From a virus (taxonomy: Duplodnaviria > Heunggongvirae > Uroviricota > Caudoviricetes): 64,000 nucleotides of DNA. The stretch is from IMG/VR virus record IMGVR_UViG_3300028805_000044. One strand, 5' to 3'. The position numbers were made by a program, and so were the translations under genes. A model generated the notes under the pieces. The model did not search any database. It was given only the letters and a program-made list of their open reading frames with translations, and was not told where the DNA came from. Positions 9,960 through 50,017 of the stretch are shown here, in pieces (positions within the stretch are counted from its first letter, which is position 1; every line of letters begins with the position of its first letter).

Positions 9960-10721
9960 TTAAGAATGGCATCCACAACCTTTATATTGAGTTGAATTTA
10001 CATTATCAAGATCTCTGCAGATTCCCCAACAAGTTTCTACTCTTTCTAAAATCTTCTATGCTCTATAGAATTGTTGCTGTTCTATACAATATTTAATTGC
10101 ATTAAGAGCCATCCATATTATGTCACGATTAAGAATCTCTCCAGCAAATCCTTTTGCCTTATCAGTAAAACAAGGATCTGTACAAGGCATATTCTCTAAG
10201 AGATACATGCATAACTTGAAGAAACATTCTTCTAAATGACATAATTCAAATGTATGTAGAGAAGTCTTTATGAGAGTAGTATTTTCTTGATTAATTTCTA
10301 ATATCTCTTCCAGAGGTACTTCATCAATAACTCCAAGGTGATATTTATAGAACTTGTCTTCAGAACCTATGAAATAGACTCCATTTGTATATTCATCAAG
10401 AGAAGCTTCATCCATATCTCTTATATAAAAGAGCCATTCCTAAGTTGGAATAAGAATATGTTCTACTCTCTTAAGTCCATCCTTTTCAAGAGTTATTTCA
10501 TCTATATCTATATCTGTGTGTGGAACTAGACTATATGATTCAAGAGCTTCTTCTTCATCAGAACCTATTGCTATTACTACATTAAGAGTAGCAGTATGTT
10601 CAAAAGTATAGTTTCTAAAACTAACCTGAGGAGAATCTAGATAGAAATCGGAATCTCTTTCAAGTCCACTTACTTGTATTCCACAAGTCCCTTTTTTACA
10701 TATATTAAATTTAGCTTCCAT
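9960..10721 (-). CDS. Conserved crAss-like hypothetical protein (TAG=Gln)
   Basis: Joins track ORFs 10440-10730 and 10056-10415 in frame; Cys-rich C-terminus KGCGCHS ends at TAA 9960. Confidence 0.65.
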
Positions 10722-11592
10722 TACTATCAAGTTTTATTTGACCAGATCCAGTTGTTGCTACTCCATTCTGTACTAGATAAGAACCGCTTTGTCCAAGAGC
10801 CTTACCTGATATAGAACAAGTAACATTTACTAAGCTTACAGTAGTTCCCTCTGGTAAGTTAGCGCTTGAAACAAGATCAACATCAAATGATTCTATGTGA
10901 TTATTTTCACCAAGTGTAACTCCTGATTTATCTATAGTACTAGCAGTGAATTCATAAGTTCCTGCAGAAGTGCTTATACTTCCAGTTACAACTACAGAAC
11001 CTATGGTTCCTCCAAGAAGTTGTATAGTACCCTGTTTATCACTTATAGTTATCGTAACTCTAGTAGTTACTTGACCATTAGCTGCCACAGTAGGTTCTCC
11101 AGGTCTTATAGTAGCATAGAAGTTTGGAAGAGAAACGTTTGTAGTATTGATCTCTATAGGATTTCCATATGTATATGGAGAAACTCCCATACCAGTAGAA
11201 AGTGCATACGTAACTGGAGTCTGTCCTGGAGCTATAAGTTTGATATAATGAGTAGGCCAGCTACCAGCAGCTTCAAGAGCGGTAACTCTGTCAGATACTG
11301 CTTGTATTCTATTAGAAAGAGTTGTTGTATCTTGACTTTGTCCAGAAGAACTGCCTCCTCCGCCTCCAAGACCTATTTCTCCATTATCTATTCTTCTCTA
11401 TATCTCCGTTGATACTGCTGTATTTATAGCGTTATAAAGACGTAGAAGCATTTCTCCTAAATCCACTCTACCATTCTTGGTATCAGGATCATTAGGCATA
11501 AGAGCAGGAATCCAATACTTACCAGCTACTATAGCTTCCTATAAAGTACCAGGAGTCTTTGTGGGCATCTCTGATATTTTCTTATTATCCAT
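10711..11592 (-). CDS. Putative structural protein downstream of portal (TAG=Gln)
   Basis: ATG 11592 overlaps the portal TAA (TAATG). MDNKKISEMPT... joins track ORF 10711-11190 in frame. Confidence 0.65.
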
Positions 11593-13781
11593 TATGATTT
11601 ACGTATTGTGTCATTATAAGGATTTCCATCCGATAGCTGCATAATTTCAAGTCTAGTTCTCTCGTCTTCAATACGATTCTTCTCAGTTTGATAATTATCA
11701 GTAGCCTCAGCTTGGAACTTCTTAACTTCATAGTCCTTATTAATCTTATCTTGTTCAATTTGTAGTTTACGCTCATTAAGTTGTTGAACTTGTCCTTGAG
11801 CTTTCTATAATTGTGATTGTAAGTCTTGTAGTTGTTTTTGTAACTCTTCGTTTTGTTGAGTAAGTTGTGCTACTTGACTATTTTCTTTCTTCTATTTAGC
11901 AAGTGCTTTACGTAATCTCTACTTTATTCCCGTAAGATCACGTGTAGTCATAATATCTACAGTAACTTCCGGATCAAGTAGTTGAGCTTTTACAAACTCA
12001 GGAACTAGAGCACGTAATTGTTCAGAATCTTTTATAATATCAGTAGATGTGGTTATATGAATATCATAATCAGACGTTGTAAAATGTTCTGGAAGTGCAG
12101 TAAATACTTTCTAAAGTCTGTCTCCAAGAATTATAACTCCTGTAAGTCCTTTCTTAAAGACTACTTTAGCTACATTTAGAATATCAAGCATCATTTCTTC
12201 TGTAAGAACATCCATCTACTAATAGTATTGTTTAGTAATAGTAAATGAATTATTTACAGAAGTCTATACGTTAGTAACAGCATCTCTTTGTTGTATACCA
12301 TTTAATCTTTCACGGAATACTCCAGTAATTGATGAGGCTGTTTGTTCTACAGAATCAATTGCTAACTATATTGCTTGTATAGCCTATGCTTTTATAGTAT
12401 CATCATATCCATTATATATGGTATTCATAGGAGTCTAAGATCCTAGATTACCTCCTTCTTGTTGCGTATCTATAAGAGCAAGTCCAGCTTTTTTGTATGC
12501 TATAAATTTCTATAGTCTTTCTGGTAAGTCTTTACCTAAGAATTTAGGAAGTACTGATAAATCTATCCAATCTCCTACGTTACCAGAAGAAGCAATAAGG
12601 TTATCTCTATAGAAATGTAGAAGGTCATATTTATCTTGTAAAGAAGCACAAGCAAGAACAAGAGAATATGGTTCTGTACCTCTATTATTAAAATATATAC
12701 CATTTATAGAGAGTGTACAGTGAGAAGGATTATCATGAGTTCTTACTACAGTATCATCCTTTCCTATTATTATATAGATATTCTCACCTATACGTACAGT
12801 TTTATATCTCTACATCACAAAGTTCTTGTCTGCTTCAAGCCATTCCACTTCATAAACTGGAATAAGTTCAAAGTGATGTGAATGAAATGTATCAACTGGA
12901 TATCCAGGAATTATTTCCTTTCCAGCTCTTATACCATCAGTAGAAGGACGTCCATCACAATAAGCGAATGAACGTACATAATAAGAGTCAGAGTCAAAAG
13001 TATCTCTCCAAGCTTCTCTAAGAGTAGCAATATCTTCCTTACTAAGTTGTTCTCCATATTGATTAAGAACCTGTTGTCTAGTAAGCCATTTACGAACAAC
13101 TGCTCTATGAGAATCTTTTACATAAGGACTTTCTGGATTTGGATCAATGAATGTATTTAAAGGGTTAAGTACCTCCACACATACATTTTGTCCAGATGGA
13201 GTTTGTTTTGCTCTATAGAATGTCCATCCAGTTATAAGTAAATCGAGAAGAAGCATTTTATGTTTTGTAATAATATCTGCTTCACGACTCTACATTATAA
13301 ACTATATAACATTCTATGCTGCTACTTCATATTCAGATACAAAATTAGCATCTAAGTCATCAATAAGATCTTGCATATCCTTCTCTATGCTCTTATCAAT
13401 GATTTGTTGATTTCCCTATAAAGAGGATAATATCTTATTCTTATATCTTCTCTTTAGAAAATCATACACTTCTGCTTTTATTTTAAGTTCTTTTTCTCTT
13501 GTTATACGCGTAATAGTTCTAGAATCCTTGCAAGTAGCTCTTGGTTGTATTGGAACTCCTAAGTATTCTCCAACTAAAGCATCAACATGTTTACGAATAA
13601 GAGGAATAAACTCAACAGAAGTTGGATTTCCTATACCATAGTTTTCTTCTAGATAGCGGAACTGTTCAGCATCTCTCTTACCATTATAGTAGTTATATGC
13701 TTTTTGTAGTTCCCACTTTGGTTTGACCAGTTCTGCTATGGTTTTATTTGTAATTTCAATAAACTCTTTATCTGTTTTCAT
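11592..13781 (-). CDS. Portal protein, crAss-like (TAG=Gln), 729 aa
   Basis: AYNYYNGKRD...ENYGIGNPTSVEFIPLIRKHVDALVGEYL N-terminus, position downstream of terminase, coiled-coil C-terminus. Track fragments 13416-13781 and 12810-13256 are in frame. Confidence 0.8.
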
Positions 13782-14080
13782 TTCTTACATGCACAGCTAG
13801 TATCAAAACACTAATCATCGGGTGGGACCCTATAACCAGTGTAATAGTGAACGTCATTTAAATGTCTATCTCTTAATTCTTGAACAAAGAACTTTAAGAA
13901 CTTGTCTAGAGGAAGTTCAGCCATAATAACTATAGGACGTTCACAGTTTTGAATTCCGAGACGTACTCTATAACCTACGGGTTTGAGTTCTTCTACATCA
14001 AGAGTTCCTGTATAATCCACACAATAAGTATTACGAATACTTTCGAGGATCACTTGTTCGGTTTCTGTTAACTATTTCAT
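13778..14080 (-). CDS. Small conserved protein between terminase and portal (TAG=Gln)
   Basis: MK*LTETEQVILESIRN...; read-through of TAG 13811 ends at TGA 13778 in an ATGA overlap with the portal start. Confidence 0.65.
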
Positions 14081-16355
14081 TTGTAAATTCTTGTAATACC
14101 CTTACTTTGGGTTGTTCTTGTTTAGGAATAATTCCAAAATGTCTTACTCCTTTGTCGTCTTTGTAATAGCCTATATCTTGGAATTTTTGACTATCATCAG
14201 GTTCTACATCAGTTGCTACAACTCCTCCAAGTTCTTCATCAGCGAGTTCAGCCATACCCATAGCTGCTATAATATCAAACTTTCCTTTCTTCTCGTCTGT
14301 ATATCTATTTAACTAGTCAAGAAATTCAGGAAACCATATATTTTGACAATAGTCCTCTACGTAAGCAGCAATAAGATCTGTCTGATGAGCAATGATAGTT
14401 GGAGTAGCCGGAGTACCAATTGCATTACCTATTTTCTTTGTAGCTTCAGGATATGTGGCACGAGGTCTTCTTATAAAGTAATCTCCCCAACCTCTACCTT
14501 TAGCCCAGTTTAAGAAAGAAAGACGAGTAGCCTCTATATTACACCTACAGTTATAATAAAGCATAAGTTTCATAGCGGTCTAAAATGCCTGTCTTTCATC
14601 ATCTGGACGAAACATATAATATGCAACATATTTAGGTTCCTACATACCAAAAGCTCTTTTCTTTATAACTATACAGAATTTAGATGGATCTTTAGTTTCT
14701 TCTGAAGTTTGTTCCATACCAATGTCGATACCGTCGACTCCAGCCACATAAAGATTACGTTTTTGTCCATACTAGATAGAATTTCCTTCATCATCTTCCT
14801 GTATTCCAAGCCATAATGGATGCTCAATAATGTGAACAAGTCCTGTATTTCCAGGAATCCATCTAACTCCTGTCACATTTTTCATATTTGTTCGGTCACT
14901 ACCCTATTTAAATAAGAACTGAAAGTCTCCATGTTCAATAGTTGGACCTTCTTTAAGTACTTTAATCTTTGTAAGCTGTTCAGCTATAAGTACTTTATTA
15001 AATTTGTTAGTTCCTTCAAGAGCAAAGGCTTCCTCAGCATTGAAACAATACTCAGCAGAGTATTCTATCAGAGCCTTAGGACTTCCTGCTCTAAGCCTTC
15101 TTTCGTTTTCATAGTATTCTTTTCCTCGTTGTGCATCACAAAAACCTCTTTCATCCATAAAATCTCCTCTATAAAGAGCAATGAAAGCAGGTATAAAGTA
15201 ACATGTCTTTACCCAATCACCATCCTATGTATAGTTGTGTAGGAATGGAAGAACGTTATGTCCCTCTGGATCATAATACATATCTGAAAGTCCTTCCAAA
15301 TTTGGACCAGAGTCACCACCAGTACCACCGGCAAGTATAATTCCAATCTTATTACCACCAAGTTGAACAAGAGCTTCTCCTTTAATGAAGGACTTACGGA
15401 AATTTGGATTAGAACCAGCCTCTTCAAGTACTAGGAGTTCCACACGATCACCTCTTATCTTAGCATCACTATCAGCTACAATACCTTCAATTTGAGATTT
15501 CCATCCATCCTCAATTTTCTGTCCTTGAACTATTTTATAGTAAGATGCTCTCTTCTTATAAGCAGTATCTACAGCCTATCTAAGTTTAAAGAATCCTCCT
15601 TCTGTATTATCATTCAAGAAGTTTAGTTCTTCCCATATTTTTTCAAGTGTTTTATCAACATAGTTCTTAGAAGCTGCAGTCATTAGAGTTTTAGAGTTTC
15701 TAAAAACGCTGTATCTTGCTGTACATAAACATGCATTAATTTCTGAGAAACCGCAACCTCTGGACTTCATAAGTCCACAATTCTTACGTAGAATCATACA
15801 GAGTTCGTAATAATGAAAGAACTCATATTGATATACATAGAAATTAGGATAGATAATTCCTCTAGAAGTTCCTGCTTTATCAGCATTTGGGTTTGGAACT
15901 TGATAGTAATTAAGAAAGAAATAATGTGAACCTGTAATTGTATATCCATTCACAGTCATCCCTTCTCGACATCTAACATATTCCTAATGCCAGAAGTCTG
16001 CATATGCTTTAGAACCAGGAACGAACTAACAATATTTTCCTGTTCTAAGTTTATTATCTCTTGCTTCTGTAAACCATTCAGGTCTAAAGTCAAGACTGTG
16101 CGTTTCATCTATTGGTTTATATCCTGTAAGTTCGTAGGATAATCTTTTATCGAAAAAAGAAATAGCAGCGTCCTTGGGAACATCCCATTCAGAACGCTGC
16201 TACTTTAACTCGGCAACGTACTGTTGCACTTCTTCATGAACTTCCTCTTCTTCTTTCTTTACCACTTCCTATATAATAGCTTGCACCTCTTCTGGTACTT
16301 CAGGAAGTAATGCAGATTTCTTACGAGGTCGTCCGCGTTTCTTCTATTCAGCCAT
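14031..16355 (-). CDS. terL: Terminase large subunit (TAG=Gln), 774 aa
   Basis: Five track fragments (15576-15959, 15225-15443, 14904-15158, 14313-14573, 14031-14261) share one frame. Walker A-like KSRGCGFSE, Walker B LLVLEEAG, coupling GGTGG, nuclease YVAGVDGID. Confidence 0.9.
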
Positions 16356-26301: not shown

Positions 26302-26620
26302 AATTGTTTTAACCAGTTAGCTAATTGTTTATGATCTTCTGCACATCCTCTATTTGGACACCTTTGGTATACCTCTTCACAATGTTTAATAGCTTCATCT
26401 AAAGTCATATCAATACTTTGAATGTTCTGTTAGGGCACCTCTTTTATAGGGATTCCAATTCTTTCCAAAGTAGTACTCATGCCATCTTTTAGCTCTTTCA
26501 TATTCAGCGTCTGTCATAATGATAAATTTTTAAGTTAGTATATGTCTTATCTATACGAAAAAAGGCATACCTCCTCTATTTAAAGAAGAAGTATGCCTGA
26601 TTGTCGCATTTAAGCCGGCT

Positions 26621-27049
26621 TCAACAAATTTCTAGTGCAATTACTGACCTTATTGTATTTAAGTCAAAATGATAAAGTGGTATCTCGTATTTTTCACAAG
26701 TTAATCTTACATTATCCCATCTATAGAAAGCAGGATTACAGAACACTATAATCTTTTTAGATTGAGCATATAATCCAAGCTCTAAAAGAGAAATAGGTGA
26801 CTTAGAATTATCAAGCAAACACATAATAATAAGGTCTGCCATATCTAAGTGCTGTTGTTCCCATTTAATTTGGTATTCTATCTCTTCCGGAGTTGGATTC
26901 TGCATCCATTCTATTCTGCGTGGGTTAAAAAAGGTTATATTTAAATCTTGGCAATTTTCTATAAGTTCTTCTTGCCAGTTAGAACTATCTCCATTATCAA
27001 TAGTTCCAGCTAAGAAGACAGTTTTATTTCTTGGATAAATTACATTCAT
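26621..27049 (-). CDS. Nucleoside 2-deoxyribosyltransferase-like protein
   Basis: VFLAGTID, FFNPRR, QI.WE and SPISLLELGL motifs. Confidence 0.75.
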   Translation of the reverse strand: MNVIYPRNKTVFLAGTIDNGDSSNWQEELIENCQDLNITFFNPRRIEWMQNPTPEEIEYQIKWEQQHLDMADLIIMCLLDNSKSPISLLELGLYAQSKKIIVFCNPAFYRWDNVRLTCEKYEIPLYHFDLNTIRSVIALEIC

Positions 27050-27240
27050 ACTTTAGTATATATTCCACAATGACAGGTTGTGCCTGTAGGTGATTCCCTA
27101 AATTCTTTACATATACATATATGATCTTCATCATTTATAAATGAGCAAGGACAATATCTTTTTCCATACTTTTCTTTCTTTTTAGATAATCCTTGTTGTA
27201 TAAGTTCCCAGAGTTCCTTGTCATTAGTTTTCCTTATCAT
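27046..27240 (-). CDS. Ferredoxin-thioredoxin reductase catalytic-subunit-like protein
   Basis: YG..YCPC...C.C.EF.......CHCG.Y. Confidence 0.65.
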   Translation of the reverse strand: MIRKTNDKELWELIQQGLSKKKEKYGKRYCPCSFINDEDHICICKEFRESPTGTTCHCGIYTKV

Positions 27241-27408
27241 ATCTTACTGATATTTCATTAAGTTTGTCTTGCCAATCTAAGCATTCTTGTGAATCTAACA
27301 TATCATATTCTTGGACTAGTCTAAATATTGCTTCAGCTTCATCAATATGAGCTTTAAATAATTGCTTCCATAATTCATTATACATAATCATTCTTATTTA
27401 AAGGTTTG

Positions 27409-27497
27409 TTAGGGTGGTAGGAATCGAACCCACTCCGTCGCCCTCAGAAGGCAATCTAGATTTAGAGTCTAGCCGTGCAACCATACACCACACCCCA
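27409..27497 (-). tRNA. Amber suppressor tRNA, anticodon CUA, Gln-type acceptor, long variable arm
   Basis: Acceptor TGGGGTG/CACCCTA, anticodon arm CTAGA-CTCTAAA-TCTAG, T arm GTGGG-TTCGATT-CCTAC. Confidence 0.85.
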
Positions 27498-27768
27498 ATA
27501 AAAAGGAAAAGGAGTCCATCACCTTCCTTTTCCATAACTTCAAACGTGAAGTTTATAAAAGATGTACATCTTAATAAATTTTCGGACTTAGGATTTGATT
27601 TTCATTCCAATTAGAAGTATATGTTATTCCAACTGGATATTCTGCGATACACTCAAGTATAGCAAATAAATCATCAAGATTCATATCAGGAAATCTTTGA
27701 TGCAAGTTTTGTAGAGTTACTTTAGTATCTATCATAAAAACTAAATTTTTATCTGGCTTCGCCAAGTA

Positions 27769-28113
27769 TCATAAGTATTTCTCTCTTATAGCCTCAATTT
27801 TACTTTGTGCAACAAGACGTACAATACTCTTGAAGTTATTGATAATTTGAGGAGTAATAGTTTTGATTTTGGAGAGGTCTTGTCCAGTTTTCTTAGCATA
27901 CTGAGCACAGGCTTCTACAAAAATATCATCATCTAATGTTTTTAAATAGTCTTCAAAATCTTTAGAATAGTCTTGTTCTTCTATGGTTATAATAAGTTTA
28001 TTATTTTCCTAAGAAGCAGTAACTGTGTACTATCCAAAACCAAGTAAAGAAGGACTAAAGTCCTTTAGAGCTTCATTTAACTCAAATAATTCTTGTTTAG
28101 TAAGTTGTTTCAT
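27769..28113 (-). CDS. Hypothetical protein (two in-frame TAG)
   Basis: MKQLTKQELFEL... 114 aa, open only with TAG read-through. Confidence 0.55.
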
Positions 28114-28465
28114 ATTTATTGTTCTTTAGTAATGCTAATATAATACCCCTCCCTCTATATAAAAAGAAATTAACTTATATTAATATATAAATATAATAAT
28201 TAAAAAATAATATTAATTTTTATAAAAACAAGTAATTGAGTATAAATTTTTTAATGGATAGAATAGAAAATTTTGGAATTAGTATTACCGCCCCCAGGGT
28301 TTTGAAGTAAAAGTGATCATATTATTAGTTTTTGTTTTCATAGAAATTTTTCAATTATAAAAATTTTTAAGAATTATTTAAGCAGGACCTCACTACCCCC
28401 TTAGCCCCTCCACCATATTTGAGTTGCAAAACAAAACATTTATTCACTTAAAAACATCAAACATT

Positions 28466-28906
28466 ATGGAAAAAGTACAAGCATTAGCAATCGTGACCGA
28501 GGTAATGAACGAGAATTTCACAGCTGACCAGAAGGAAGCTTGGAAGCGTGACGCTCAGGGCATGCCTCTGCTGGTAAACGACACTCTGCATTTCAAGGAG
28601 ATTACAAAGGAGAATATCCACGTAGGAACCATTGGTGCTGGTGCCGCTAACGCAGGTCAAAAGTTCTTGCAGATTGAGTCTGTCGAGGGCACCATGTTGG
28701 GTATTTCTCAGATTGCTCGTAAGGGCAACGGTCTGAACCTCGAAGGCTCGACTCGTGAGGAACTCGTCGGCGACTTTGTCGCTAAGGTCAACACCTACAA
28801 CGAGGAGCATCCCGATTCTGCTGGTTTCGCTATCAAGGTCAAAGACCTCAAGACGCGTCCAGGTCAGAACGGACAGATGGTTATCCCGACCTTCGCACTC
28901 GCATAA
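28466..28906 (+). CDS. First rightward (early) gene, GC-rich, hypothetical
   Basis: ATG 28466 (MEKVQALAIV); visibly higher GC and more C-ending codons than its neighbours. Confidence 0.7.
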   Translation: MEKVQALAIVTEVMNENFTADQKEAWKRDAQGMPLLVNDTLHFKEITKENIHVGTIGAGAANAGQKFLQIESVEGTMLGISQIARKGNGLNLEGSTREELVGDFVAKVNTYNEEHPDSAGFAIKVKDLKTRPGQNGQMVIPTFALA

Positions 28907-30552: not shown

Positions 30553-31071
30553 AATGTTCAGAACTAACCCCAGAGAAAACTCCAATGAATCCAGAAGGAA
30601 GAGTTTTCAAGTTTGTCATTCGTAATGCAAAGCCTAGCTTTATTAAGTACATAAGATATGCTTGGAGATATTTCTTCTTTAAAGATCAAAAAGATTGTAA
30701 GGTTATTATCCGTAAGAGTAATGTCTTCATTTATATAGGAGCTTGGTATTGTGTCATTATGAACGATCTGAAATTTATCAGAAACTGTAAGGATTATCAG
30801 TTGGAAGCAACTAAGAATGATTTTAAATGGCTTGATTCACATGATTGAGTTTGTCCAGCAAGCACCTCAATTTGAAAGTGCACTTGAGAAAAAAGAGTAT
30901 GAGCAAATGCTGATTGATCTTCATCATTGTCCAAACAGGAAAGATTTTATTCATAGTAAAGCAGGAGTATCTAAAGTCCTTCTTTATATGAAGGTAAGAC
31001 AAGTTGGACCTGCACAAGCAATGAGAGAACTTATCACGGACGAGGCATATACCTTGTTCGTTTGTCCGTAG

Positions 31072-32130
31072 CATACGGGTATCATAAGCCAAGACGAGTG
31101 AAAGTAGAGGAACCAACCAGCCTTGAGGATAACTATGAGGTGGAGCCGCTGTAGGTCCTAATGAGCCCTTCTCATCAGGAAGATTGCTGTAAAATGTCGT
31201 TAATGTTATACTTGTGGTGGGTAGCAGACACAGCGAACTTCTTGTTGAGGTATGCAATATATAGCGCGAGTCCCGTTTGGCCGCCGACTTGAATAAAGTC
31301 TCGCCGCCTTTTCCGCGCTTCTAGGGTAGAGAAATTATACTCTGCCCTTTCAACGTTTTCTTCCGACGTCCTGTCTAGGTTAAGGTGGAGTTGTGTGTAT
31401 ACTGGTGAGACACGTGTAAAATTTTAAAGAGCGACCAAGTACCTGAGTCGTGTATTTGGCGAAGCCAAACACACTTAAACCTTCAGGGAGTACTGTAAAA
31501 TACTCTAAAATGAGATAGATGTTGGGGATTCTGAGCGCCGCCATTTTGCCGCGAGACTTAAGTGTCGGTCGCGACGTCGAGGCCTTCGCAAGTATTCCGG
31601 ACAAATACAGTACGCTGGATTGACTCTGATTACGGAGGATCCAGGGATGAGAGAAGTGCACAAGATTAGTACCAATTCTTGAGGAGTAGTAGTATGGTAC
31701 TCTCTGCTCCGGCACTTTCTCAAATCCGAAATAAGGGAATTGAAAAAATCAGTACTACTTTCAAATTCCTGGGAAGAGAGACAGTAGGTGTCTATCTTGC
31801 TTTAATGAAGACGTATTGGAGGATGTACATAAGTAACTTGTACTTAGTAAGATACTATTAGCTTCAAAGAAGAATTAGATATAAAAGGGTTCAAATCCCA
31901 CTCTTCCACAACAGTCCAAGTAACCATTTGTGCATAACGCGGACAGGCCAGTTGAATAACGGGAGCATAGACTGGCACAGGTAAATAAATTGCGGTATAA
32001 TAAAGAAACCGAGTGCCCAACTTTTCCCTTGAGAACTGTAGGAGGAGTACCAAATGTGTTACAGTTTCTCTTTCGGTCGCATTAACTAACACTGACTTAA
32101 AATCTCCTCCATTTTTAAAGATTTTCCCCA
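31072..32130 (+). ncRNA. Large (~1 kb) structured non-coding RNA candidate
   Basis: GC-richer gap with no credible ORF, many hairpins and long-range complementarities (see findings). Strand inferred from context; boundaries approximate. Confidence 0.55.
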
Positions 32131-32170
32131 AATGTCTGTTATAGACTTATTATTATTTATCAGCCTTTAA

Positions 32171-32210
32171 GAGAAAGATTGCTTGCGAAAGTAGTCTTTC
32201 TTGCTTTTTT
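32171..32210 (+). terminator. Intrinsic terminator with GCGA tetraloop
   Basis: GAGAAAGATTGCTT-GCGA-AAGTAGTCTTTCTT followed by a T tract. Confidence 0.6.
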
Positions 32211-32257
32211 CTATTTAAATAGATATATTTATAGTTGAAATTAATCAATTAAATATT

Positions 32258-33769
32258 ATGCCATTTACATAGAGAAATGATAATACAAGAGTTTAGAAAC
32301 CTCTGATAGTTCAACCTATTAAAAAGAAATTGGTTAGACGAGTAAAAAATGAAGAAGTAAAGCAAGATAATAGACCATAGATAATAAGACAACAAGCGCA
32401 GTCCAAATCAGATGCTCAATATAAATAGGACAAAATGTAGAAAGCTTAGGATTTTACTATCTAGGCTATGCTACGTCCACTTATGGTAACAGATCTATCT
32501 CATATGTTTGGAGTTATTACATCTGATAAGCCATTTATAGAGACCTTTGGTAATCCGGAAGTACAAGCTACTAATAATGATGTTTTAAACTTTATTATTG
32601 GTTCAGCGAGTCCTTGGGGTATAACTAAAGCTGGACTTATCCCACTTATGATGTTTAGAAAGGGAGCATTTAAGAAACAATTTATTGGCGCATTCAAGGC
32701 TTAGAAAGATAGAGATTTCTTAAACAAATAGATTCTGTCTAGAACAGGAAAGAAAATGTCTGTATATGATGCATATGCTGCTAATGAACTTCCAGACCAG
32801 TATCAAAGAACATTTGAAGCCCTTATAAGAAGATTTAATGGAGAACTAAAAGCACAGGATGTTAGTCAAATTGCTAAATCTGAAAGAGCTATAACTAACA
32901 ATGCTAAACTTGATGCCAATAAAGTAAAGGCAATTAGATAGACCGTTATAGACAATAAGGGAACTACTTATGAAAGTGCAGTCGCAGATAACTTCAAAAA
33001 GACAGGTATAAATTGGAGTGATTTGGATAATCAAGGAATGATGTTTGGAATGGATGATAATTTACGTTTAACAAAAGTTGGAAGTGCTAATTAGCCTTTT
33101 TTATAGAGATATTATCACAATGTTGTAACTCATATGTTGGATAATAATGGTAAAGAAGGTTTTCAAACTAAGATTCTTAAATCTGGAGATTTACGTAAGA
33201 ATACATCTACCAAACAATGGGAAGGACGATATCCAGATGGTAACTATTATCCAGTTAGACGTCCAGAGGAATATATAAAAGTTAGATGGGCAAAAGAAAA
33301 AGGAATGTAGATAGAATTACCTATACCAGATGGAACTTACCATAACTTTCCAGTTCATGGAACTATTACAAAAAATAAGGGATATTTAGTAAAGCCTAGT
33401 TCTAGCCCAGGAAAAAATGGTTACTGGACCATAAGAATGGACAGTAAAGGATAGGGTTCAGACGCTGCAGGATATTACCAGAAAAATGGATATGCAGTTC
33501 CATTCTATGAATCTCCTAATTTAGAAACTGACCCATTTAAAGCTGGAACTAGTTATAATTTAATGAAGACTTTATAGGAAAACTATTCTGGAAGGGTTAT
33601 GTAGCCTTTAAATGTTAAGGATGCTAATGCTCCAGCTTAGAGAGTGAATGAATATATATTTAGTCCAACAGCTCCAAACCCAAAATCTGCTTGGAATACT
33701 CTAGACTTTGAACCTGGACAAGGCCCATTAGCTTATAATAAAATTTAGAATAATAATAATTTAGCATGA
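32258..33769 (+). CDS. Recoded (TAG=Gln) 503 aa protein with a C-terminal ADP-ribosyltransferase-like (PolyVal-type) domain
   Basis: Single frame with no TAA/TGA, joining track ORFs 32468-32704 and 32756-32941. Motifs PVHGT, KNGYW, NEYIFSP..P.PKSAWNT.DF. ATGA overlap with the next gene. Confidence 0.6.
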
Positions 33770-34472: not shown

Positions 34473-34621
34473 TAGAGTCCGTCTAGTGCGGGCTCTTTTT
34501 GTATAGACAAGTATCATATCTTTTATATATGTTTACTGCTCCAAGAGGTATTAGCATGGAGCATGGTCAGATGCAGATGACCTTGGATACCTCAGCCTGG
34601 CTTCAACGTAAAGCTAGGCAG

Positions 34622-34740
34622 AACGGGTTAGCTCAATGGCTAGTAGGACCGACTATAGTCGGTCCTGCGAATGACAGCTGCACATCTGTAGAGCAACACT
34701 TATAAAGTGGAAGATGCTGGTTCGATTCCAGTGCCCGTTA
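34622..34740 (+). ncRNA. tRNA-like RNA with a large D-loop insertion
   Basis: Acceptor AACGGGT/GCCCGTT, GCTC/GAGC D stem around a palindromic insert, T arm GCTGG-TTCGATT-CCAGT. Confidence 0.55.
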
Positions 34741-34744
34741 CAAA

Positions 34745-34870
34745 AGGGAAATAGTTTAAGTGTTAGAACATTGATGGCCTTGAGTTGATGCCTAGCAAGC
34801 AGGATTAGCTGATCCAATCATCTCCAGGATTATACTATCAATTACGTGCAGGTACAAACTGCTTTCCCTT
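34745..34870 (+). ncRNA. tRNA-scaffold RNA with the anticodon loop replaced by an insert
   Basis: AGGGAAA/TTTCCCT acceptor, D arm, and TTGAT/ATCAA stem enclosing ~60 nt. Confidence 0.45.
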
Positions 34871-34875
34871 TAAAT

Positions 34876-34994
34876 GGATAAGTTTAGTTGTGTTGGTAAC
34901 GACTTAGATTAATTTCTTTTAGAGATTAGGGATAATTCGTAGGAAGACGTCTTAGTACGGGTTATTCATTAGGGTTCGAATCCCTACTTATCCA
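34876..34994 (+). ncRNA. tRNA-like RNA with a very long variable arm (possible TTT loop)
   Basis: GGATAAG/CTTATCC-A acceptor; T arm TAGGG-TTCGAAT-CCCTA. Confidence 0.5.
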
Positions 34995-35383
34995 CTCAAT
35001 CATTGGACCGGTATGTCCGGATAGCGCGTTGCTCATTTTAGCGCAGATTCTCTTACAATATCCATAAGCTTGCATGTGGTAGTATGTAGAAATAGAAGAT
35101 CTCTTCACTGAGTAGCTCCAATAAACTTTTTATTAACTTAAAACCTCACAACGTATAGGTAAGTTGTATTTTATTATGTGTTGGACAGCTTATGGGATTC
35201 CTTCAGAATTAACTGCTGAAGTAGATATTCCTATTTTAAAAGTAGGCCTACTTCTCCAGGAAGCATGCCCCATTGGAATATTACTGTAGAAGAAAATGGT
35301 AATGGTTATTGGGCTAATGAACTTGCTGGAATCTTTGTTCGCGTTATTCCATCGTATGAACTTGAAGCATTTATAAAAGGATT

Positions 35384-37407: not shown

Positions 37408-38010
37408 ATGTTAACATTAACAAAAGGTGGGAAGGTTAATCTCACAAAAGAAGGCATTACTGTTTTTAGAATGGGACTTGCCTGGGATGCTAACACAGGA
37501 ACTGGAGCACCATTCGATCTAGATGCTGCTGCCATACCTCTAAAAGAAGATGGTAAGGCAGTTGCAGATGATGCTTTGTGTTTCTATGGACAGCTCAACT
37601 GGAAGGATGCTATTAAGCATTCTGGTGACGAACGTACAGGTGCTGCGGAAGGTGATGATGAGACAATCACCATTAATACTTCCAAATTACCAGCTGATGT
37701 TCAGAAGGTTGTAGTTATTGTGAACATTCACGATGCTAAGAACCGCCAACAGAACTTTGGTATGGTAAAGAACTCTAAGGTTACTCTTTACAAAGGGGCT
37801 GAAGGAGTTGCAGAATCTGATATCCTAGCTAAGTATGATCTTGAGGAAGATGCAAGTATGTCTAGATGCTTGGTATTCTGTGAGATCTATAAGAAAGATG
37901 GAGAGTGGAGATTCAATGCTGTGAATGAGAGTAAGGGCTCTTACAATGATACAACGTATCATCAAGTGCTCACTAGTTATGGTATTCAGTCTGAACCATC
38001 TGACTTATGA
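37408..38010 (+). CDS. terD: TerD family protein
   Basis: L.KGG.VNL, MGLAWD, FDLDA, HSGDERTGAAEGDDE, QNFG.V, E.YK..GEWRF.A. Confidence 0.92.
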   Translation: MLTLTKGGKVNLTKEGITVFRMGLAWDANTGTGAPFDLDAAAIPLKEDGKAVADDALCFYGQLNWKDAIKHSGDERTGAAEGDDETITINTSKLPADVQKVVVIVNIHDAKNRQQNFGMVKNSKVTLYKGAEGVAESDILAKYDLEEDASMSRCLVFCEIYKKDGEWRFNAVNESKGSYNDTTYHQVLTSYGIQSEPSDL

Positions 38011-38624
38011 TAAACTTATCTAAAGGTGGGCGCATTAACCTCTCTAAGGACGAGAACGGTAACAGTTTAGACAAAATTTTCTTTGGCTCTAACTGGGGAA
38101 TGATTAAGAAGGCTTTTGGTCTTGCTAAAGAAGCAGTAGACCTTGACTCTTCTGTAGTTCTTCTTGATGCTAACGGAAATAAAGTCGATATTGTTTACTT
38201 TGGTCATAAGAATGCTCCCGGTATTCATCATTATGGGGATGATCTTACAGGCGATGCTGATGGTGACGATGGTATGGATAATGAGACAGTAGAAATTACT
38301 CTATCTAAACTGGAATCCAGAGTAGAGCATGTTTTCTTTGTACTCAATTCTTATTGTCATCATAAGTTTGATAAGATTCCTTATATAGGAATTCGAATCT
38401 ATACTTCTCCAAACAATAAGCCAAAGGAACATATTTCCGATCCTGTAACTGTACTTGCTCAGTATTCTTTAAAGGATATGGCAGCAGAGTTTGCAGGTAA
38501 AGAGTCTGTAGTTCTTGGTGAAGCATATCGTCGTAATGGAGAGTGGAAATTTAAGGCAATAGGACAATTTGGTAACATACAGAGTGTTTCAGATTTTCCT
38601 GCTATTTGTAAACAACTTATTTAA
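38007..38624 (+). CDS. TerD/TerZ family protein
   Basis: INLSKGGRINL, VDLDSS, H.GDDLTGD..GDDG.DNE, YRRNGEWKFKAIG. Confidence 0.88.
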   Translation: MINLSKGGRINLSKDENGNSLDKIFFGSNWGMIKKAFGLAKEAVDLDSSVVLLDANGNKVDIVYFGHKNAPGIHHYGDDLTGDADGDDGMDNETVEITLSKLESRVEHVFFVLNSYCHHKFDKIPYIGIRIYTSPNNKPKEHISDPVTVLAQYSLKDMAAEFAGKESVVLGEAYRRNGEWKFKAIGQFGNIQSVSDFPAICKQLI

Positions 38625-38636
38625 TACAAAGTAGAA

Positions 38637-38987
38637 ATGAAAGAATTGATAAAGAGTATCTTAGCTGATGGTACTATCGATAAAGCTGAAGTCGAACAGC
38701 TGGAAAAAGCCTTATATGAGGATGGTAAAATCGACAAAAAGGAAGCGGAAGCACTGTTCAAGCTTAACAATGAGGCTACTGCACAGTGTCCTGAATTTAA
38801 GGACTTGTTCGTAAAGGGAGTTAAAGATTATATCTTAGCCGACGGGAAGATCGATGACGAGGAAACTGAGTTCCTTTGTCAGCAGATCTCTGCAGATGGT
38901 GAGATAGACGACAACGAACGTGCTCTTCTCGAGGCTCTTGCCGCTGAAGTTGAACTTCCCGCCGAACTTGCTGAAATGTTGGATTAA
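38637..38987 (+). CDS. TerB-like acidic metal-binding repeat protein
   Basis: Four (A/E)DG.ID..E repeats. Confidence 0.7.
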   Translation: MKELIKSILADGTIDKAEVEQLEKALYEDGKIDKKEAEALFKLNNEATAQCPEFKDLFVKGVKDYILADGKIDDEETEFLCQQISADGEIDDNERALLEALAAEVELPAELAEMLD

Positions 38988-39045
38988 AACTCACAAGTGG
39001 GAGTTGTTTAGGCAGCTCTCACTTTTATTAACAAATAACAGTCAA

Positions 39046-41505
39046 ATGAAAGGTTTATATTCTAATGAAGCGGACAAAATTCTACTTTTAGAAGGTGAAA
39101 ATGTCCTAACGCCCGCAAAGCGTGATCCTTGGTATATAATGCTTTTAGATGGATTTAAAGATCCTCTAATCATTATTCTAAGTGTAGCTGCGATTCTATC
39201 GTTAGCTATAGGTATTATGAAAGCTGAATTTATGGAACCTATAGGTATTATAGCTGCTATTATGTTAGCAGTTGGTGTAGGTTTCTGGAACACTTACAGC
39301 GCAAGTAAGAAATTTGATCTCCTGCTTACTTATGCTGATGATACTTTAGTTAAAGTTTTTCGTGATGGAGAGTTAACTGAAGTTCCTAGGAGATGTCTCG
39401 TAAGAGAAGATGTAATTGTATTGGAAAGTGGAGAAGAAGTTCCCGCAGACGTCACCATTTTATCGGGAACTTGTGCTTGTGATGAATCTTCATTTACTGG
39501 AGAATCTAAACCAGTAAGTAAAGGCCCTCTTAATGCTGAAAAAGAAGGACTCTTTGTCCAACAGAACAAATTATTGAGAGGTTCTGTTATTATAGAAGGA
39601 CGCGTAGAAGCTTTAGTTGAAAAGACTGGAGATAATACAATTCTTGGAGGAATGGCTAGACAAGCTTCTGAAATTACTGATGTTGAAACTCCACTCAATA
39701 AGCAGTTAGATCGTTTGGCTAATCTTATTAATAAAATAGCCTTTTGTTCTGCTGCTATTCTTATTCTTGCATTGTGTGTTAAGTATATATTTATTGATCA
39801 AGCTTACATAGGAAAAGAAACTTTAGGAATAATAAATGATTTGCTGCAATTCTTAATGATAGCAGTTGCACTTATTGTTGTTGCTGTTCCTGAGGGACTT
39901 CCAATGGCTGTTACACTTGCACTTGCCTATTCTATGAAGAAAATGGCTAATGAGAACAATCTGATCAAGAAAATGCATGCTTGTGAAACACTTGGTGCTA
40001 CAACTCTTATCCTTACCGATAAGACTGGCACTCTTACGGAGAATAAAATGACTGTAGTATTTAAGTCTGTTAATATTGGATACAATGATATAGTATTAAA
40101 TTCTACTGCATTTAATCATGTAGGTAATCCAACAGAACAAGCACTTATCCGTAGTCTTGGCACTACTGATGAAGCAATTCAAAGAACAAGAGACATGTAT
40201 CCCATCGTATATCGTGAAGAATTTAATTCTGATCGTAAGTACATGAAGTCTGTTTATAAGGCTGAAGATGGTAGATATATAGTTCTTGTTAAAGGAGCTC
40301 CAGAGATTGTGATTGGTTTCTGTGTTGAGGACAAGAATGATTCTTATAAAGTAGAACAGTCGAGGGGACGTCGAGTTATTGGTTTTGCAATTCGTGTTGA
40401 TGAGACAACGGATGCTTTAGAGCTGAATGAAAACTTCGATTACTTGGGACATGTATCTATTGAAGATCCAATTCGTTCTGCTGTACCTGAGGCTATTAAG
40501 CAAGCACGTGAAGCTGGAATCAAAGTTAAGATTGTAACTGGTGATAATGCTGATACTGCTGCTGAAATAGCAAGACAAGCTAAGATTTCTGATTATCCAG
40601 TCGTTACTCTTGGTAAAGATGTAGAAAAATCTAATCTTGGTACATTATCTACAACTGATGTGTTTGCTAGAAGTCGTCCAGAAGACAAACAAACTCTTGT
40701 GAAAAAGTTTCAGTCTATGGGTGAAGTAGTAGCAGTTTCTGGAGATGGAACTAATGATGCTCCAGCGCTTAATCATGCAGAAGTAGGAATAGCAATGAAT
40801 AGTGGTACTGATGTAGCTAAAGAAGCTGCTGATGTTGTCCTTCTTGATAATTCATTCCCTTCTATCATTACAGGTATTAAATGGGGAAGAAGTCTATATA
40901 AGAATATACAACACTTCATACTCTTCCAGCTTACTATCAATGTAGTAGCAATACTTACTGCAATAGTTGGTCCATTTATAGGTGTAAATCTCCCCTTCAC
41001 TGTAACGCAAATGTTGTGGGTAAACCTTATAATGGATACATTCGCTGCTCTTGCTCTTGCTACTGAACCAGCTAATGATTCAGTTATGCTAGAGCGTCCT
41101 CGTAATCCAAAGGACTTTATAATAACTACAGATATGTGGTTAAACATAGGCACTGTAGGTATACTATTCTTTACAGTTATGATTGTACTATTAGTAACTA
41201 AATGGGTTAATCTTACTCAGTTCTTTACTATCTTTGTAATGTTACAATGGTGGAATCTATTTAATGCTAGAGTATTTGGACAAGACCGTTCTATATTTAG
41301 TGGACTTGGACAGAACTGGGCATTTACTGGTATTGCACTTGTAATTTTAGTAGGACAGTTCTTAATTGTACAATTTGGAGGCGAAATGTTTAGAACTGAG
41401 CCTCTTACTGCTATGGAATGGTTATGTATTATAGGTACGACCTCCATTGTAGCTGTGTCACGCGAGACACTTCATATTATAAAAGGTTTTATTAAAAAAT
41501 GTTAA
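39046..41505 (+). CDS. P-type (PMCA-like) calcium-translocating ATPase
   Basis: TGES, VPEGLP, DKTGTLT phosphorylation site, KGAPE, TGDN, GDGTNDAPAL, QMLWVNLIMDT. Start placed at ATG 39046. Confidence 0.92.
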   Translation: MKGLYSNEADKILLLEGENVLTPAKRDPWYIMLLDGFKDPLIIILSVAAILSLAIGIMKAEFMEPIGIIAAIMLAVGVGFWNTYSASKKFDLLLTYADDTLVKVFRDGELTEVPRRCLVREDVIVLESGEEVPADVTILSGTCACDESSFTGESKPVSKGPLNAEKEGLFVQQNKLLRGSVIIEGRVEALVEKTGDNTILGGMARQASEITDVETPLNKQLDRLANLINKIAFCSAAILILALCVKYIFIDQAYIGKETLGIINDLLQFLMIAVALIVVAVPEGLPMAVTLALAYSMKKMANENNLIKKMHACETLGATTLILTDKTGTLTENKMTVVFKSVNIGYNDIVLNSTAFNHVGNPTEQALIRSLGTTDEAIQRTRDMYPIVYREEFNSDRKYMKSVYKAEDGRYIVLVKGAPEIVIGFCVEDKNDSYKVEQSRGRRVIGFAIRVDETTDALELNENFDYLGHVSIEDPIRSAVPEAIKQAREAGIKVKIVTGDNADTAAEIARQAKISDYPVVTLGKDVEKSNLGTLSTTDVFARSRPEDKQTLVKKFQSMGEVVAVSGDGTNDAPALNHAEVGIAMNSGTDVAKEAADVVLLDNSFPSIITGIKWGRSLYKNIQHFILFQLTINVVAILTAIVGPFIGVNLPFTVTQMLWVNLIMDTFAALALATEPANDSVMLERPRNPKDFIITTDMWLNIGTVGILFFTVMIVLLVTKWVNLTQFFTIFVMLQWWNLFNARVFGQDRSIFSGLGQNWAFTGIALVILVGQFLIVQFGGEMFRTEPLTAMEWLCIIGTTSIVAVSRETLHIIKGFIKKC

Positions 41506-42160: not shown

Positions 42161-42610
42161 ATGCATACACAAGAAGAAATTAGAGAAGACATGGATAGAC
42201 TTCATGCCTTTATTGATTCGTTGAAAGTAAAGTATGGTCCAGAATTTGCTTGTGCTGTTGCAGCAGGAACTGGAATCAATACTGAGATCACAAGTGAAGA
42301 TGATCCAGATGCTTTCGCGGGTGGAGCTTATATGGTAGGAGAACCGGCTATGTTTCATCAAGCCTGTCATTGCCTGCTTAAATCTTGCAAATTTATCGAT
42401 GGAATTATTGATGCTATGGAGTGTGTAATAATGCAAGAACACAAGGAAAGTGGTAAGCCAAAATTCCTAGATATGATGATGGTTACTTCTCTTGAATCTC
42501 TGAAGAAACTTCTTATAATGAGTACTGATGAATTCAAGGAAGAAAAAGAAAAACAAGAACTTGATGAGGCCGTTGATCAACTTCTGAGAGATTCAGGTCT
42601 CAAAAACTAA
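42161..42610 (+). CDS. Hypothetical protein
   Basis: Track ORF, 149 aa. Confidence 0.6.
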   Translation: MHTQEEIREDMDRLHAFIDSLKVKYGPEFACAVAAGTGINTEITSEDDPDAFAGGAYMVGEPAMFHQACHCLLKSCKFIDGIIDAMECVIMQEHKESGKPKFLDMMMVTSLESLKKLLIMSTDEFKEEKEKQELDEAVDQLLRDSGLKN

Positions 42611-42902
42611 ATAAATTGGTGTGACTGAACAACTCTTTGCCAAGAGGGTAAGGTACACGTGCAGGTGCTGAAAAGTCTTGTACGCGGTTAGGATACAGCA
42701 AACATAAGGTATACAAGAGAGATTGGGTGGGCCAACTTGATCTTGAGTAGTACACGAAGTTAGTATCTGATTGGATGCAGTGTTGAAGGTAATCAATCCT
42801 TCCTTCTATTTAAATAGTAACATGATCGACTACTATGGAAGTGACTGAAAAGTGTTCTGCTGTATAGAATTTGGAGGTAATCAGTAGACCTCTCACCAAT
42901 AC

Positions 42903-43874: not shown

Positions 43875-45674
43875 ATGAAAAAAGTAACAACTTTATTCGG
43901 CAAGGAGGACACTAGGGATGTCCTCAACAAAGATGCTAATATCTTTGAAAAGGAGAAGTTCGCTCGTGAACATCAAACACTCTCCGAAAATGGTAGTGAT
44001 AAATATACTACCACAGGTAATGTATTCTTAGATGACTTTGCTATGTTATCTAAATACAAAGAGCAAAGAGATTTAGATAATATCTTCGCAACTATGGAGA
44101 AACTGTGGAATCATGATCCTCTTCGTACATTACAACTTACAGTATTCTTAAGAATGATTACTCGTAAGACTGTCTTATTTAGTGGAGAAAAACTTTCAAC
44201 ACAAAGAGGACAGGGTCTTAAGCATGAGTTCTTAGGAAGATTACTTTGGTTAGCTTGTGAACATCCAGATACATTTGAAAAGAATATGCAATACTTCGTT
44301 GTTGCAGGTTCTTGGAAAGATGCGTTTGATCTTATGAGATATGACTTATCTTATAATGGTAAGAATCATCCAATGTTAAATTGGAATTTTATGATTCGCT
44401 TTATAGCTGGAGGATTAGTAGATGAAAGTCAAACTAATTTAGTTAAGAAGTATCTTCCTCAAATACATAGTGCTAAGCATTGTAACACTTTACAAAAGCA
44501 GTGTAATGCTGTAATTGGAAGACGTATTGCTAGATATATGTTTGGAAATCCAGAAGATGTACAGGATAAAATTCATAATACAATTGAGTATAGAAAGCTT
44601 AAAACATCTGGTAATGCCCATGATTGGCAAAAGAAAATTGCTCAGCAAGATTATTTCAATATTAATTGGGATACCGTTGCGGGACGCGCTTTACAGAAAA
44701 TGGTGAACTCCAAGTTCTTAGAGAACCATAATCTTGAGGAAATATTCAGTAATTGGATGCTACATCAAGATGTTGCTAAGTATACAGGTTATCCTTACGA
44801 ACTATTTAAAGATGGGTGTTATGGAATATCTAGGTATGCTTATCCCAGAAAAAATTCAGTCGAAGAATTGATTGAATCTTTATATCCCAAGAAGTATCAA
44901 AGAGAACTTGTTAACAAACAATTTTTACAACTTATCGAAATTGCTAAGCAGGACATAAACAGACAAACTGGATTCATTGTAGCTATGGATGTATCTGGTT
45001 CTATGACATCTAAGTGTAAAGGTTCAACTACAATGTCTGCTTATTCTGTAGCCAGAGCAATGGCTTTGTATTTCTCTTACTTATTAAAAGGTAAGTTTGC
45101 AAATACTTTGCTTGCTTTTAGCAATAGAGTAGTAATAGATAAGTTTGAAGGAAAGAGTCCGATTGAGAAGTATTATAATGGATACTATAAGTATTCTGCT
45201 TGTAATACTAACTTCTTCCAGATTGCTCAATTATTTGGACAGTTAAAGGCGAAGGGTTATCCAGAGTCGGACTTCCCGACTGGTGTAGTATGTCTTTCAG
45301 ATGGAGAGTTTGATAGACCAATGGGAGATTGGAATGTCAGTGGGGATACTGACTGGAGTTCAAGAAGCAGTACTTCAAGAGAAACAGTCTTTGAAGCTTT
45401 CAAGAGTCATCTTAGAAAGTGTGGATTCTCTGCTGAGTATGTTGATAACTTCAAGTTAGTTCTATGGGATATTCCCAATGACTATTATGAAATATCTACT
45501 CCTAAGTTTGAAGCTCTTGCAGATACTCCTAACATATTCCATATGTCTGGATTTGATCCTGCTGGAATTGCCTTCTTAACAGGAACTAAACAAGTAACTT
45601 CTATTCCCCGCACTCCAGAAGAATTGTTTGAAGCTGCTATGAATCAAGAGTTAATCCAACTTTTGAAGTGTTAA
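43875..45674 (+). CDS. DUF2828-like TROVE/VWA (Ro60-related) protein, 599 aa
   Basis: TLSENG..KY.TTG, LR.I.R...G.G, GSWKD, KYLP, I.W..VAGRA, P.EL, MIDAS-type DVSGSM, TNF, LSDGEFD, MSGF. Confidence 0.75.
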   Translation: MKKVTTLFGKEDTRDVLNKDANIFEKEKFAREHQTLSENGSDKYTTTGNVFLDDFAMLSKYKEQRDLDNIFATMEKLWNHDPLRTLQLTVFLRMITRKTVLFSGEKLSTQRGQGLKHEFLGRLLWLACEHPDTFEKNMQYFVVAGSWKDAFDLMRYDLSYNGKNHPMLNWNFMIRFIAGGLVDESQTNLVKKYLPQIHSAKHCNTLQKQCNAVIGRRIARYMFGNPEDVQDKIHNTIEYRKLKTSGNAHDWQKKIAQQDYFNINWDTVAGRALQKMVNSKFLENHNLEEIFSNWMLHQDVAKYTGYPYELFKDGCYGISRYAYPRKNSVEELIESLYPKKYQRELVNKQFLQLIEIAKQDINRQTGFIVAMDVSGSMTSKCKGSTTMSAYSVARAMALYFSYLLKGKFANTLLAFSNRVVIDKFEGKSPIEKYYNGYYKYSACNTNFFQIAQLFGQLKAKGYPESDFPTGVVCLSDGEFDRPMGDWNVSGDTDWSSRSSTSRETVFEAFKSHLRKCGFSAEYVDNFKLVLWDIPNDYYEISTPKFEALADTPNIFHMSGFDPAGIAFLTGTKQVTSIPRTPEELFEAAMNQELIQLLKC

Positions 45675-49909: not shown

Positions 49910-49995
49910 TTTGATTGTTAATCAAAGGGTCATCGGTTCGAGTCCGATCTCTCCCGCACTGATTCATTTCTGGGAGAGTAGCTCAGTTGGTAGAG
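49910..49995 (+). tRNA. Circularly permuted tRNA-Asn(GUU)-like module
   Basis: The 3' part (anticodon arm, T arm, CTCTCCC-G) precedes the 5' part (GGGAGAG-TAGCTCAGTTGGTAGAG). Confidence 0.8.
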
Positions 49996-50017
49996 TTTAT
50001 GGAAAGTGCTCTTTTCT

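Follow-up and report, generated by a model that had tools for sequence, protein, structure and literature searches.

The 64,000-nt stretch of DNA analyzed here, hereafter the window, is, on the basis of its sequence, part of a crAss-like phage of the rumen in which TAG is read as glutamine. When TAG is translated in this way, in fact, the terminase (14031-16355) and portal (11592-13781) genes match crAss-type families of the PHROGs collection; a tRNA with a CUA anticodon is present at 27408, and ARAGORN called 23 tRNAs and one tmRNA over the window. The terminase large subunit (TerL) shares 44-50% identity with that of two phages from human faeces that lack annotation, but only about 27% with that of classified 100-kb crAss phages, and the longest contig that encodes a window protein measures 192,637 bases. 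Passages of PMC7886860 describe the zeta group of crAss phages as 145-192 kb in size, recoded, and carrying many tRNAs, and we infer, without a tree, that the window phage fits this group. Several features of the window lie away from the locus discussed below. A GC-rich gene of no known family at 28466-28906, conserved at 73% in the relative L001 and at 43% in phage G003, showed a high RNA depth (1,750 in run X3 and 365 in run X4). The interval 37408-41505 carries two phrog_5698 genes, which we take to be TerD-like, along with a tellurite-resistance-like gene and a P-type ATPase, and is syntenic in G003, while 43875-45674 encodes a DUF2828/vWA_Ro60-like protein. Weak RNA matches were seen to manA just 5' of the tRNA region (42591-42812, 23.2 bits, E 0.077) and to the Y-RNA-like YrlA (49926-49998, 28.6 bits, E 0.048). 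A second cluster of atypical tRNA-like RNAs occupies 34500-35100 (34622-34741 and 34876-34995, called by ARAGORN only at a lowered threshold), and the first of these has a homolog in loci L102 and L107, where it lies within the same non-coding run as the cassette described here.

This cassette (Table 1) begins at the stop of a small ORF and spans 31072-32130. A sequence-only reading had described the interval as a GC-richer gap holding one ornate non-coding RNA of about 1 kb, with a number of named pairings. The gap is indeed richer in GC (42-53% over 31001-31800 vs 33-39% in the flanking kilobases), and all 18 quoted motifs are present, those given with coordinates lying where placed. A single 1-kb fold is instead rejected: the reading had lumped four modules that, as judged from sequence comparison, have been gained, lost, or swapped independently in relatives, and because these modules vary separately across homologs the locus is best described as a cassette with a conserved unit of about 470 nt.

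Table 1. Features of the cassette and its surroundings, in window coordinates
Feature	Position	Strand	Remarks
Upstream small ORF	30817..31071	+	Encodes 84 aa under translation table 11 and 94 aa with TAG read as Gln; matches no known family
Optional 190-nt module	31072..31260	+	In 4/16 sequences
Core ornate non-coding RNA	31261..31730	+	433-521 nt in relatives; 15 homolog loci
P8b loop CTTAAG	31557..31562	+	Candidate symmetric kissing loop; palindrome of at least 4 nt in 12/13 sequences
P10a apical loop AGTACC (palindrome GTAC)	31668..31673	+	Candidate symmetric kissing loop; palindromic in 12/12 complete sequences
Variable spacer hairpin	31735..31769	+	Hairpin of differing sequence in 9/9 sequences folded
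tRNA-like module	31772..31909	+	Covaries in 7 sequences
Swappable 3' motif	31913..32014	+	In 7/12 sequences reaching that far
Intrinsic-terminator-like hairpin closing the cassette	32171..32212	+	1 found vs 1.3 in shuffles

Homologs were gathered with an 18-base motif from the shared part of the core, which returned 25 metagenome loci, 15 of them homologous (66-87% identical to the window core) and 10 unrelated. Because the motif lies inside the core, the invariance of that stretch reflects the way in which the homologs were selected, as does the presence of the core in all sequences. Alignment A2 holds 13 sequences, following exclusion of L112 (100% identical to L089), L113 (99% identical to L090), and the truncated L103; L108 is the same contig as L001, a 163-kb relative found through the gene at 28466, which matches 31261-31390, 31489-31731, and 31909-32020 at 66-88%. 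Searches beyond this collection yielded little: blastn of 50,697 phage records returned no match to the RNA, and pattern scans of viral sequences gave no loci in two cases, 60 loci with one homolog in a third, four loci with one homolog in a fourth, six loci (four related and two chance promoters) in another, and none homologous among at least 120 loci in a further one, while a scan of GTDB returned a single, non-homologous locus.

All 73 candidate clusters scored for the upstream ORF were 57-100% identical to it, and neither Pfam nor Atlas contained a match. The 3' end of this ORF precedes the core in 10 of 16 sequences only, which argues against its being an obligatory partner of the RNA, an idea that we consider weak. 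Where relatives lack the 190-nt module, their RNA contigs join 31072 to 31329 or 31352. The possibility that this module is a shrunken paralog of the central junction of the core appears weak as well: model R1 scored 31181-31242 at 11.3 bits (E 0.49), model R2 and nhmmer did not match the module to the core, the local alignment between the two was equalled by 17 of 1000 shuffles, and the module fold had a z of -0.9. Downstream, the spacer region at 31737-31797 is left uncovered by the RNA contigs of relatives, and the order of core, tRNA-like module, and 3' module is kept among homologs.

We regard it as nearly certain that the core is a genuine RNA, non-coding and structured. To this extent the sequence-only reading holds: the existence of homologs, covariation, indels that break the frame, and contigs from metatranscriptomes all speak for a large, expressed RNA of this type. 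Folding of the 474-nt core is better than that of its shuffles (z -4.2, and -3.7 to -6.2 in four homologs), and our model of 101 pairs in 18 helices has 96.1% of 1,266 cells paired over the 13 sequences of A2, compared to 37-49% in slid controls. Changes on both sides were found in 21 pairs, distributed over 9 of the 18 helices, vs 10.2 in shuffles, a count that none of 500 shuffles reached; the 13 sequences are related mosaics, so that allele swaps inflate such counts, and pair counts overstate the number of independent events. Four of the five structure measures were matched by none of the 500 shuffles, and the remaining one, further pair types, was not above them (84/500). No conserved coding frame was seen in the core: of 140 indels relative to the window in 10 homologs, 24 were multiples of 3. 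The plus strand is favored, with 116 G-U cells vs 10 A-C cells on a structure that was itself derived on that strand. The model consists of several multi-way junctions with many invariant unpaired positions, plus two candidate pseudoknots (31365-69/31574-78 and 31403-06/31434-37), in which no both-side changes were seen, as one is invariant and the other varies mostly toward G-U.

Several of the pairings proposed earlier are part of this model. The AGCGCG/CGCGCT helix is paired in 97% of cells, the AGGGTAGAG/CTCTGCCCT helix carries 25 both-side changes, GAGAA/TTCTC is invariant and paired in 100%, and the long-range GACGT/ACGTC pairing reaches 95%, with changes on one side only. The TTTGGC/GCCAAA hairpin does form but is limited to 2 of 13 sequences. 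Four of the named long-range helices are instead unsupported. The AAGTCTCGC/GCGAGACTT and GCCGAC/GTCGGT helices are jointly paired in 79.8% of cells, a value equalled by 258 of 500 shuffles, and their arms fit better in local hairpins; the 3' arm of AGATAGATG/TGTCTATCT is part of the tRNA-like module and was not found in 4 of the 11 sequences inspected, and that of GGAGTAGTA/TACTACTTT occurs in just 2 of 11. The pseudoknot suggested for AGCGCG/CGCGCT vanishes with the first helix that it was thought to cross, as the latter is not supported.

The T-arm-like element noted near 31887 is genuine, although it belongs to a separate tRNA-like module. This module has a 7-bp acceptor (31772-78/31901-07), a D-like arm with an invariant GG, an extended anticodon arm of about 90 nt, and a short T arm; its 38 pairs are 98.1% paired over seven sequences, with both-side changes in eight pairs (5/500 shuffles) and a covariation score matched by none of 500. 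Neither ARAGORN nor Rfam called the 31772-31909 region, and a canonical tRNA is ruled out by the roughly 90 additional nt of the anticodon arm and by a T stem of 3 bp vs the usual 5-bp one. The module lies directly behind the core in all 14 sequences reaching that far, in three interchangeable types, with relatives carrying as substitutes a minimal acceptor-plus-T module or a module with another T-loop. Because it is always present and freely exchanged, it behaves like a processing signal, and we predict that it acts as such or as a linker.

The 3' motif that follows has a 5' half resembling a pseudoknot, then a hairpin that covaries, and finally a terminal hairpin, and folded alone gives a z of +0.7. 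Three phage contigs that lack the core (L064, L065, and L067) contain the 3' half of this motif as well. Like the theta (HDV-like) ribozyme, the motif is found in a gut phage with recoded TAG, shortly after a tRNA-like end (by a few bases), and a nested pseudoknot can be drawn for both; according to PMC10879173, that ribozyme is defined by a catalytic C as the first base of J4/2. In the 3' motif, J4/2 is a single base, which by eye is a C in only one of six sequences and is otherwise T or absent, so that the catalytic C is not conserved and the assignment is rejected. Two of the core-less contigs have features of their own. L065 (G022:C1, ~147,700-150,200) is a stretch of about 2.5 kb with few credible ORFs that contains the same 3' motif and a RAGATH-1 hammerhead (56.1 bits), and by eye its 5' part looks similar to the sequence preceding the GOLLD-like domain of phage G016. 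In L064, positions 1626-2230 correspond to a tRNA gene with an insertion of about 530 nt (ARAGORN, introns allowed). This insertion, which went unnoticed by Rfam at E<=1, is probably a self-splicing intron that has diverged.

As for the terminator proposed after the region, a terminator-like hairpin is present on the plus strand (32171-32202, within the tabulated feature), even though a single such hairpin against the 1.3 expected in shuffles is weak when taken alone. In run X4, the contig of depth 505 stops at 32127 with an adapter end, and the depth past 32272 is about 11. Just past the hairpin lies an AT-rich motif (32212-32230) that occurs once in the window; visual inspection of several relatives showed it in the equivalent position ahead of different genes, and it is possibly a phage promoter.

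All RNA data available to us are assembled contigs, which carry no information on strand, ends, or true level, from runs that were found using this same stretch; 75-92% of the sampled words were found in two runs from a single sample of sheep gut, and the comparison omits the small-share runs X8-X13 and X16-X24. Within these terms, the core appears to be over-represented about 20-150 fold in RNA contigs relative to its flanks in two of four data sets. In sheep run X3, summed contig depth was 10,598 at 31201-31600 vs 76-143 in neighboring genes, with 2-8 in the poorly transcribed 26401-28400 and a background value (134) in the 31601-32000 bin. Run X4, from the same sample, had 318-505 over 31201-32000 vs 4-12 over most flanks. 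For the cattle runs, contigs were placed at 80% likeness. Of these, X6 and X7, which share many identical depths and are probably one data set, reached 4,500-11,600 at 31371-31614 vs 50-66 in upstream genes, X15 showed 36-205 vs mostly less than 10, and X14 236-291 vs 125 in the upstream ORF, a difference of about 2-fold only. DNA run X1 had a flat depth of 15-19. As none of the listed contig joints skips the core, there is no sign of splicing.

The core matches no catalogued RNA family, and its best reading is that of a new family of GOLLD/ROOL-type RNA. Rfam found nothing at the locus at the gathering level, four unrelated matches below 24 bits at E<=10 over 30600-32600, and two tRNAs only at E<=3 over 11 homolog loci; GOLLD, ROOL, introns, and RNase P are all among the families that gave no match to the core. 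This null is not exhaustive, since Rfam also missed the probable tRNA intron of L064. The comparison to GOLLD and ROOL made in the sequence-only reading is apt as an analogy, and covariance-model tests assign the core to neither. The GOLLD model (RF02032), whose 416 positions appear to cover only the 3' part of that RNA, found nothing over 30600-32600 or in phage G002 at E<=10, nor anywhere in the window at E<=1, and rang in the positive control, where it detected sub-threshold GOLLD in G003 and G016. R1, R2, nhmmer, and blastn showed no homology to the core at or upstream of the two GOLLD-like loci compared, those of these same phages. The ROOL model (RF03087) matched neither the locus nor the homolog loci, in a search that had no ringing positive control. 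YrlA did not match over the core, either.

Features of the GOLLD/ROOL kind are nonetheless apparent, as the core is phage-borne, near tRNAs, and folded into a large multi-junction structure. PMC12286853 and its companion preprint describe GOLLD as a large, ornate, abundant phage RNA near tRNAs, sometimes with a tRNA in its linker, that forms RNA-only cages through symmetric kissing loops whose palindromes switch, a sequence signature that the core shows as well. The core is shorter (about 470 nt vs more than 800 for many GOLLDs) and, unlike GOLLD, is known only from one rumen phage clade. Similarly, ROOL is described in PMC5737381 as rumen-derived and ornate, with multistem junctions and pseudoknots, near tRNAs, and with an average length of 581 nt, not far from that of the core; it is also very abundant and assembles as an octameric cage. 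Its model has six junctions and three pseudoknots as opposed to the two candidate pseudoknots of the core, and it spans three phyla as opposed to the narrow distribution seen here. Abundant, persistent non-coding transcripts were also reported, in 10.1101/2020.03.07.982082, from the rightward early region (g004-g005 and g005-g006) of the crAss-like phage phi14:2; our blastn search of 50,697 phage records, a set that may not include phi14:2, returned no match to the core. The literature that we searched, mostly open-access, contained no description of the core RNA: neither GOLLD nor ncRNA occurs as a term in PMC12386605, a paper on zeta phages, and six motifs were absent from six supplementary files of PMC10690425, whose further files 1, 2, and 4 may list fragments of this RNA among 10,000 candidates.

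Related phage records, identified by TerL, provided additional clues on the genomic position of this RNA. R1 over 20 records and R2 over 17 found the core only in G002; weak matches were obtained by R1 in an apparently coding stretch of G003 and by R2 in G003 and G006. The closest record by TerL, G001, is uninformative, as it probably ends before the slot. Phage G003, which is complete and whose TerL is 74% identical, lacks the core, and its interval between the same flanking genes matches GOLLD at 56.6 bits (E 1.1e-13), a score below the cut-off of 150 bits. This sister phage thus puts a GOLLD-like RNA where the clade studied here has its own, and the notion of a shared slot rests on this one genome. 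Of the 17 related crAss-like records, 2 gave GOLLD-like matches, and in one of these the match is at the same slot as the core; G002 has the core and lacks GOLLD, and four of six near-complete related records have neither. More generally, the interval is a hot spot for small RNAs. Of the two diverged GOLLD-like RNAs themselves, that of G003 (L261:5570-6740; G003:C1:181075-181541) has a CUA-anticodon tRNA in its linker, and that of G016 (L264:1501-1902; G016:C1:16280-16681; 86.6 bits) ends a non-coding stretch of about 1.7 kb.

The sequence of the core makes it likely that this RNA pairs with copies of itself through palindromic loops. The P10a loop contains a palindrome of at least 4 nt in all 12 complete sequences, namely GTAC in five, CTAG (as TCTAGA) in five, and GCTAGC in two; the truncated L093 has GCTAGC at the P10a position and is folded otherwise. 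Between alleles, GUAC is replaced by CUAG and the flanking U-A by G-C, with self-complementarity across the axis being kept. The test was made after the pattern had been seen and rests on three alleles, which differ enough that positional homology depends on the position of the hairpin. By chance, a palindrome of 4 nt is expected with a probability of 0.28 in a random 8-nt loop, and one of 6 nt with a probability of 0.09-0.12 in an 11-13-nt loop; six other loops of the core were palindromic in 0/12, 5/13, 5/13, 0/13, 1/13, and 3/13 sequences. The P8b loop, being nearly invariant, shows no covariation. Palindrome switching of this sort is presented in passages of PMC12286853 as support for symmetric kissing loops (bridges) in OLE and GOLLD.

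Taken as a whole, we would give about even chances to an explanation in which a processed core of about 470 nt, over-represented in RNA assemblies, oligomerizes by kissing loops into a particle similar to those of GOLLD and ROOL. The core would be transcribed within a rightward operon of small ORFs, and host RNase P would likely cut at the 5' side of the tRNA mimic, a step drawn from the general knowledge of this enzyme, to generate the core 3' end. The trimmed RNA would be stable, and its copies would likely kiss via the palindromic loops and form an oligomer. More speculatively, within infected Bacteroidota this particle could act on tRNAs, on ribosomes, or on a defence factor of the host by scaffolding or sequestering them, a role also proposed for GOLLD. 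A different arrangement, which we regard as unlikely, is that of one three-part RNA of about 750-800 nt, where the core is the 5' domain, the tRNA mimic an unprocessed linker, and the 3' motif the 3' domain, as in GOLLD. The X4 contig spanning 31385-32127 is in fact continuous at a depth of 505, the order of the modules is kept, the GOLLD-like RNA of G003 has the same three-part layout, and GOLLD linkers sometimes hold tRNAs (PMC12286853). However, the 3' motif is missing in 5 of 12 sequences, lies about 320 nt away in L111, and is found in phages without a core; among the helices tested none links the core to the downstream modules, and the RNA contigs of relatives, thousands deep over the core, reach only 20-230 beyond 31800, a drop to which divergence may contribute.

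A monomeric decoy or ribonucleoprotein that binds a host or phage protein, such as a defence nuclease, a translation factor, or the phage Ro60-like protein, through invariant single-stranded segments would leave the palindrome switch as an unexplained, incidental trait, and no partner gene is fixed beside the core, given that the end of the upstream ORF is found in 10 of 16 sequences and the downstream genes vary; nor does YrlA match over the core. The many invariant unpaired positions, the apparently high abundance, and the presence of the DUF2828/vWA_Ro60-like protein (43875-45674), 23 ARAGORN tRNAs, and a tmRNA in this phage would fit such a role, which we consider rather improbable all the same. 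Catalytic RNAs resemble the core in size, variable peripheral helices, and an invariant center, and the oversight by Rfam of the L064 intron shows that an unrecognized ribozyme (a diverged RNase P RNA, an intron, or a self-cleaving RNA) processing the many phage tRNAs could be missed. Such a reading is nevertheless very unlikely in light of the lack of Rfam matches at the thresholds given above and of hallmark motifs that are absent or sporadic. For RNase P, CR-V was found in 0/15 sequences and CR-I only with two mismatches in five, and the 5' and 3' ends of the core are not paired with each other, the 5' end pairing locally. For group I introns, the R and S motifs were found in 0/15, and no gene is interrupted and no listed RNA contig joint crosses the core; for group II introns, the 5' GUGYG motif was found in 0/15 and a loose D5 pattern sporadically, in 5/15. 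A cis-acting element, either a riboswitch-like leader or a structured 3' UTR regulating adjacent genes, would fit the start of the cassette at an ORF stop, and the motif order of the core has some likeness to that of the FMN aptamer; this likeness and one to cobalamin are weak or rejected. We regard this as highly improbable: the FMN riboswitch model (RF00050) gave 0 candidates in G002 although half of the controls (7 of 14 genomes) rang, the next gene is reached only after some 500 nt of further modules and a terminator, the flanking genes vary, and the core is far deeper than the adjacent mRNA.

A bolder and still doubtful possibility is that a third, independently evolved family of cage-forming RNAs replaced GOLLD at one slot in the genomes of zeta-like crAss phages, assembling without protein via two palindromic kissing loops and freed by interchangeable tRNA mimics. 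Should that be true, RNA particles with no common ancestry would be exchanged among phages to fill a single role. The finding of a different RNA at the GOLLD slot of a sister phage offers a direct comparison for the open question of GOLLD and ROOL function, and a partner or quaternary form shared with GOLLD would indicate what RNAs of this kind do in general. The natural palindrome switch names the bases to test, and the core adds a target of 450-500 nt for cryo-EM. The cassette itself, within its narrow clade, illustrates how a phage RNA cassette can employ tRNA mimics as exchangeable modules.
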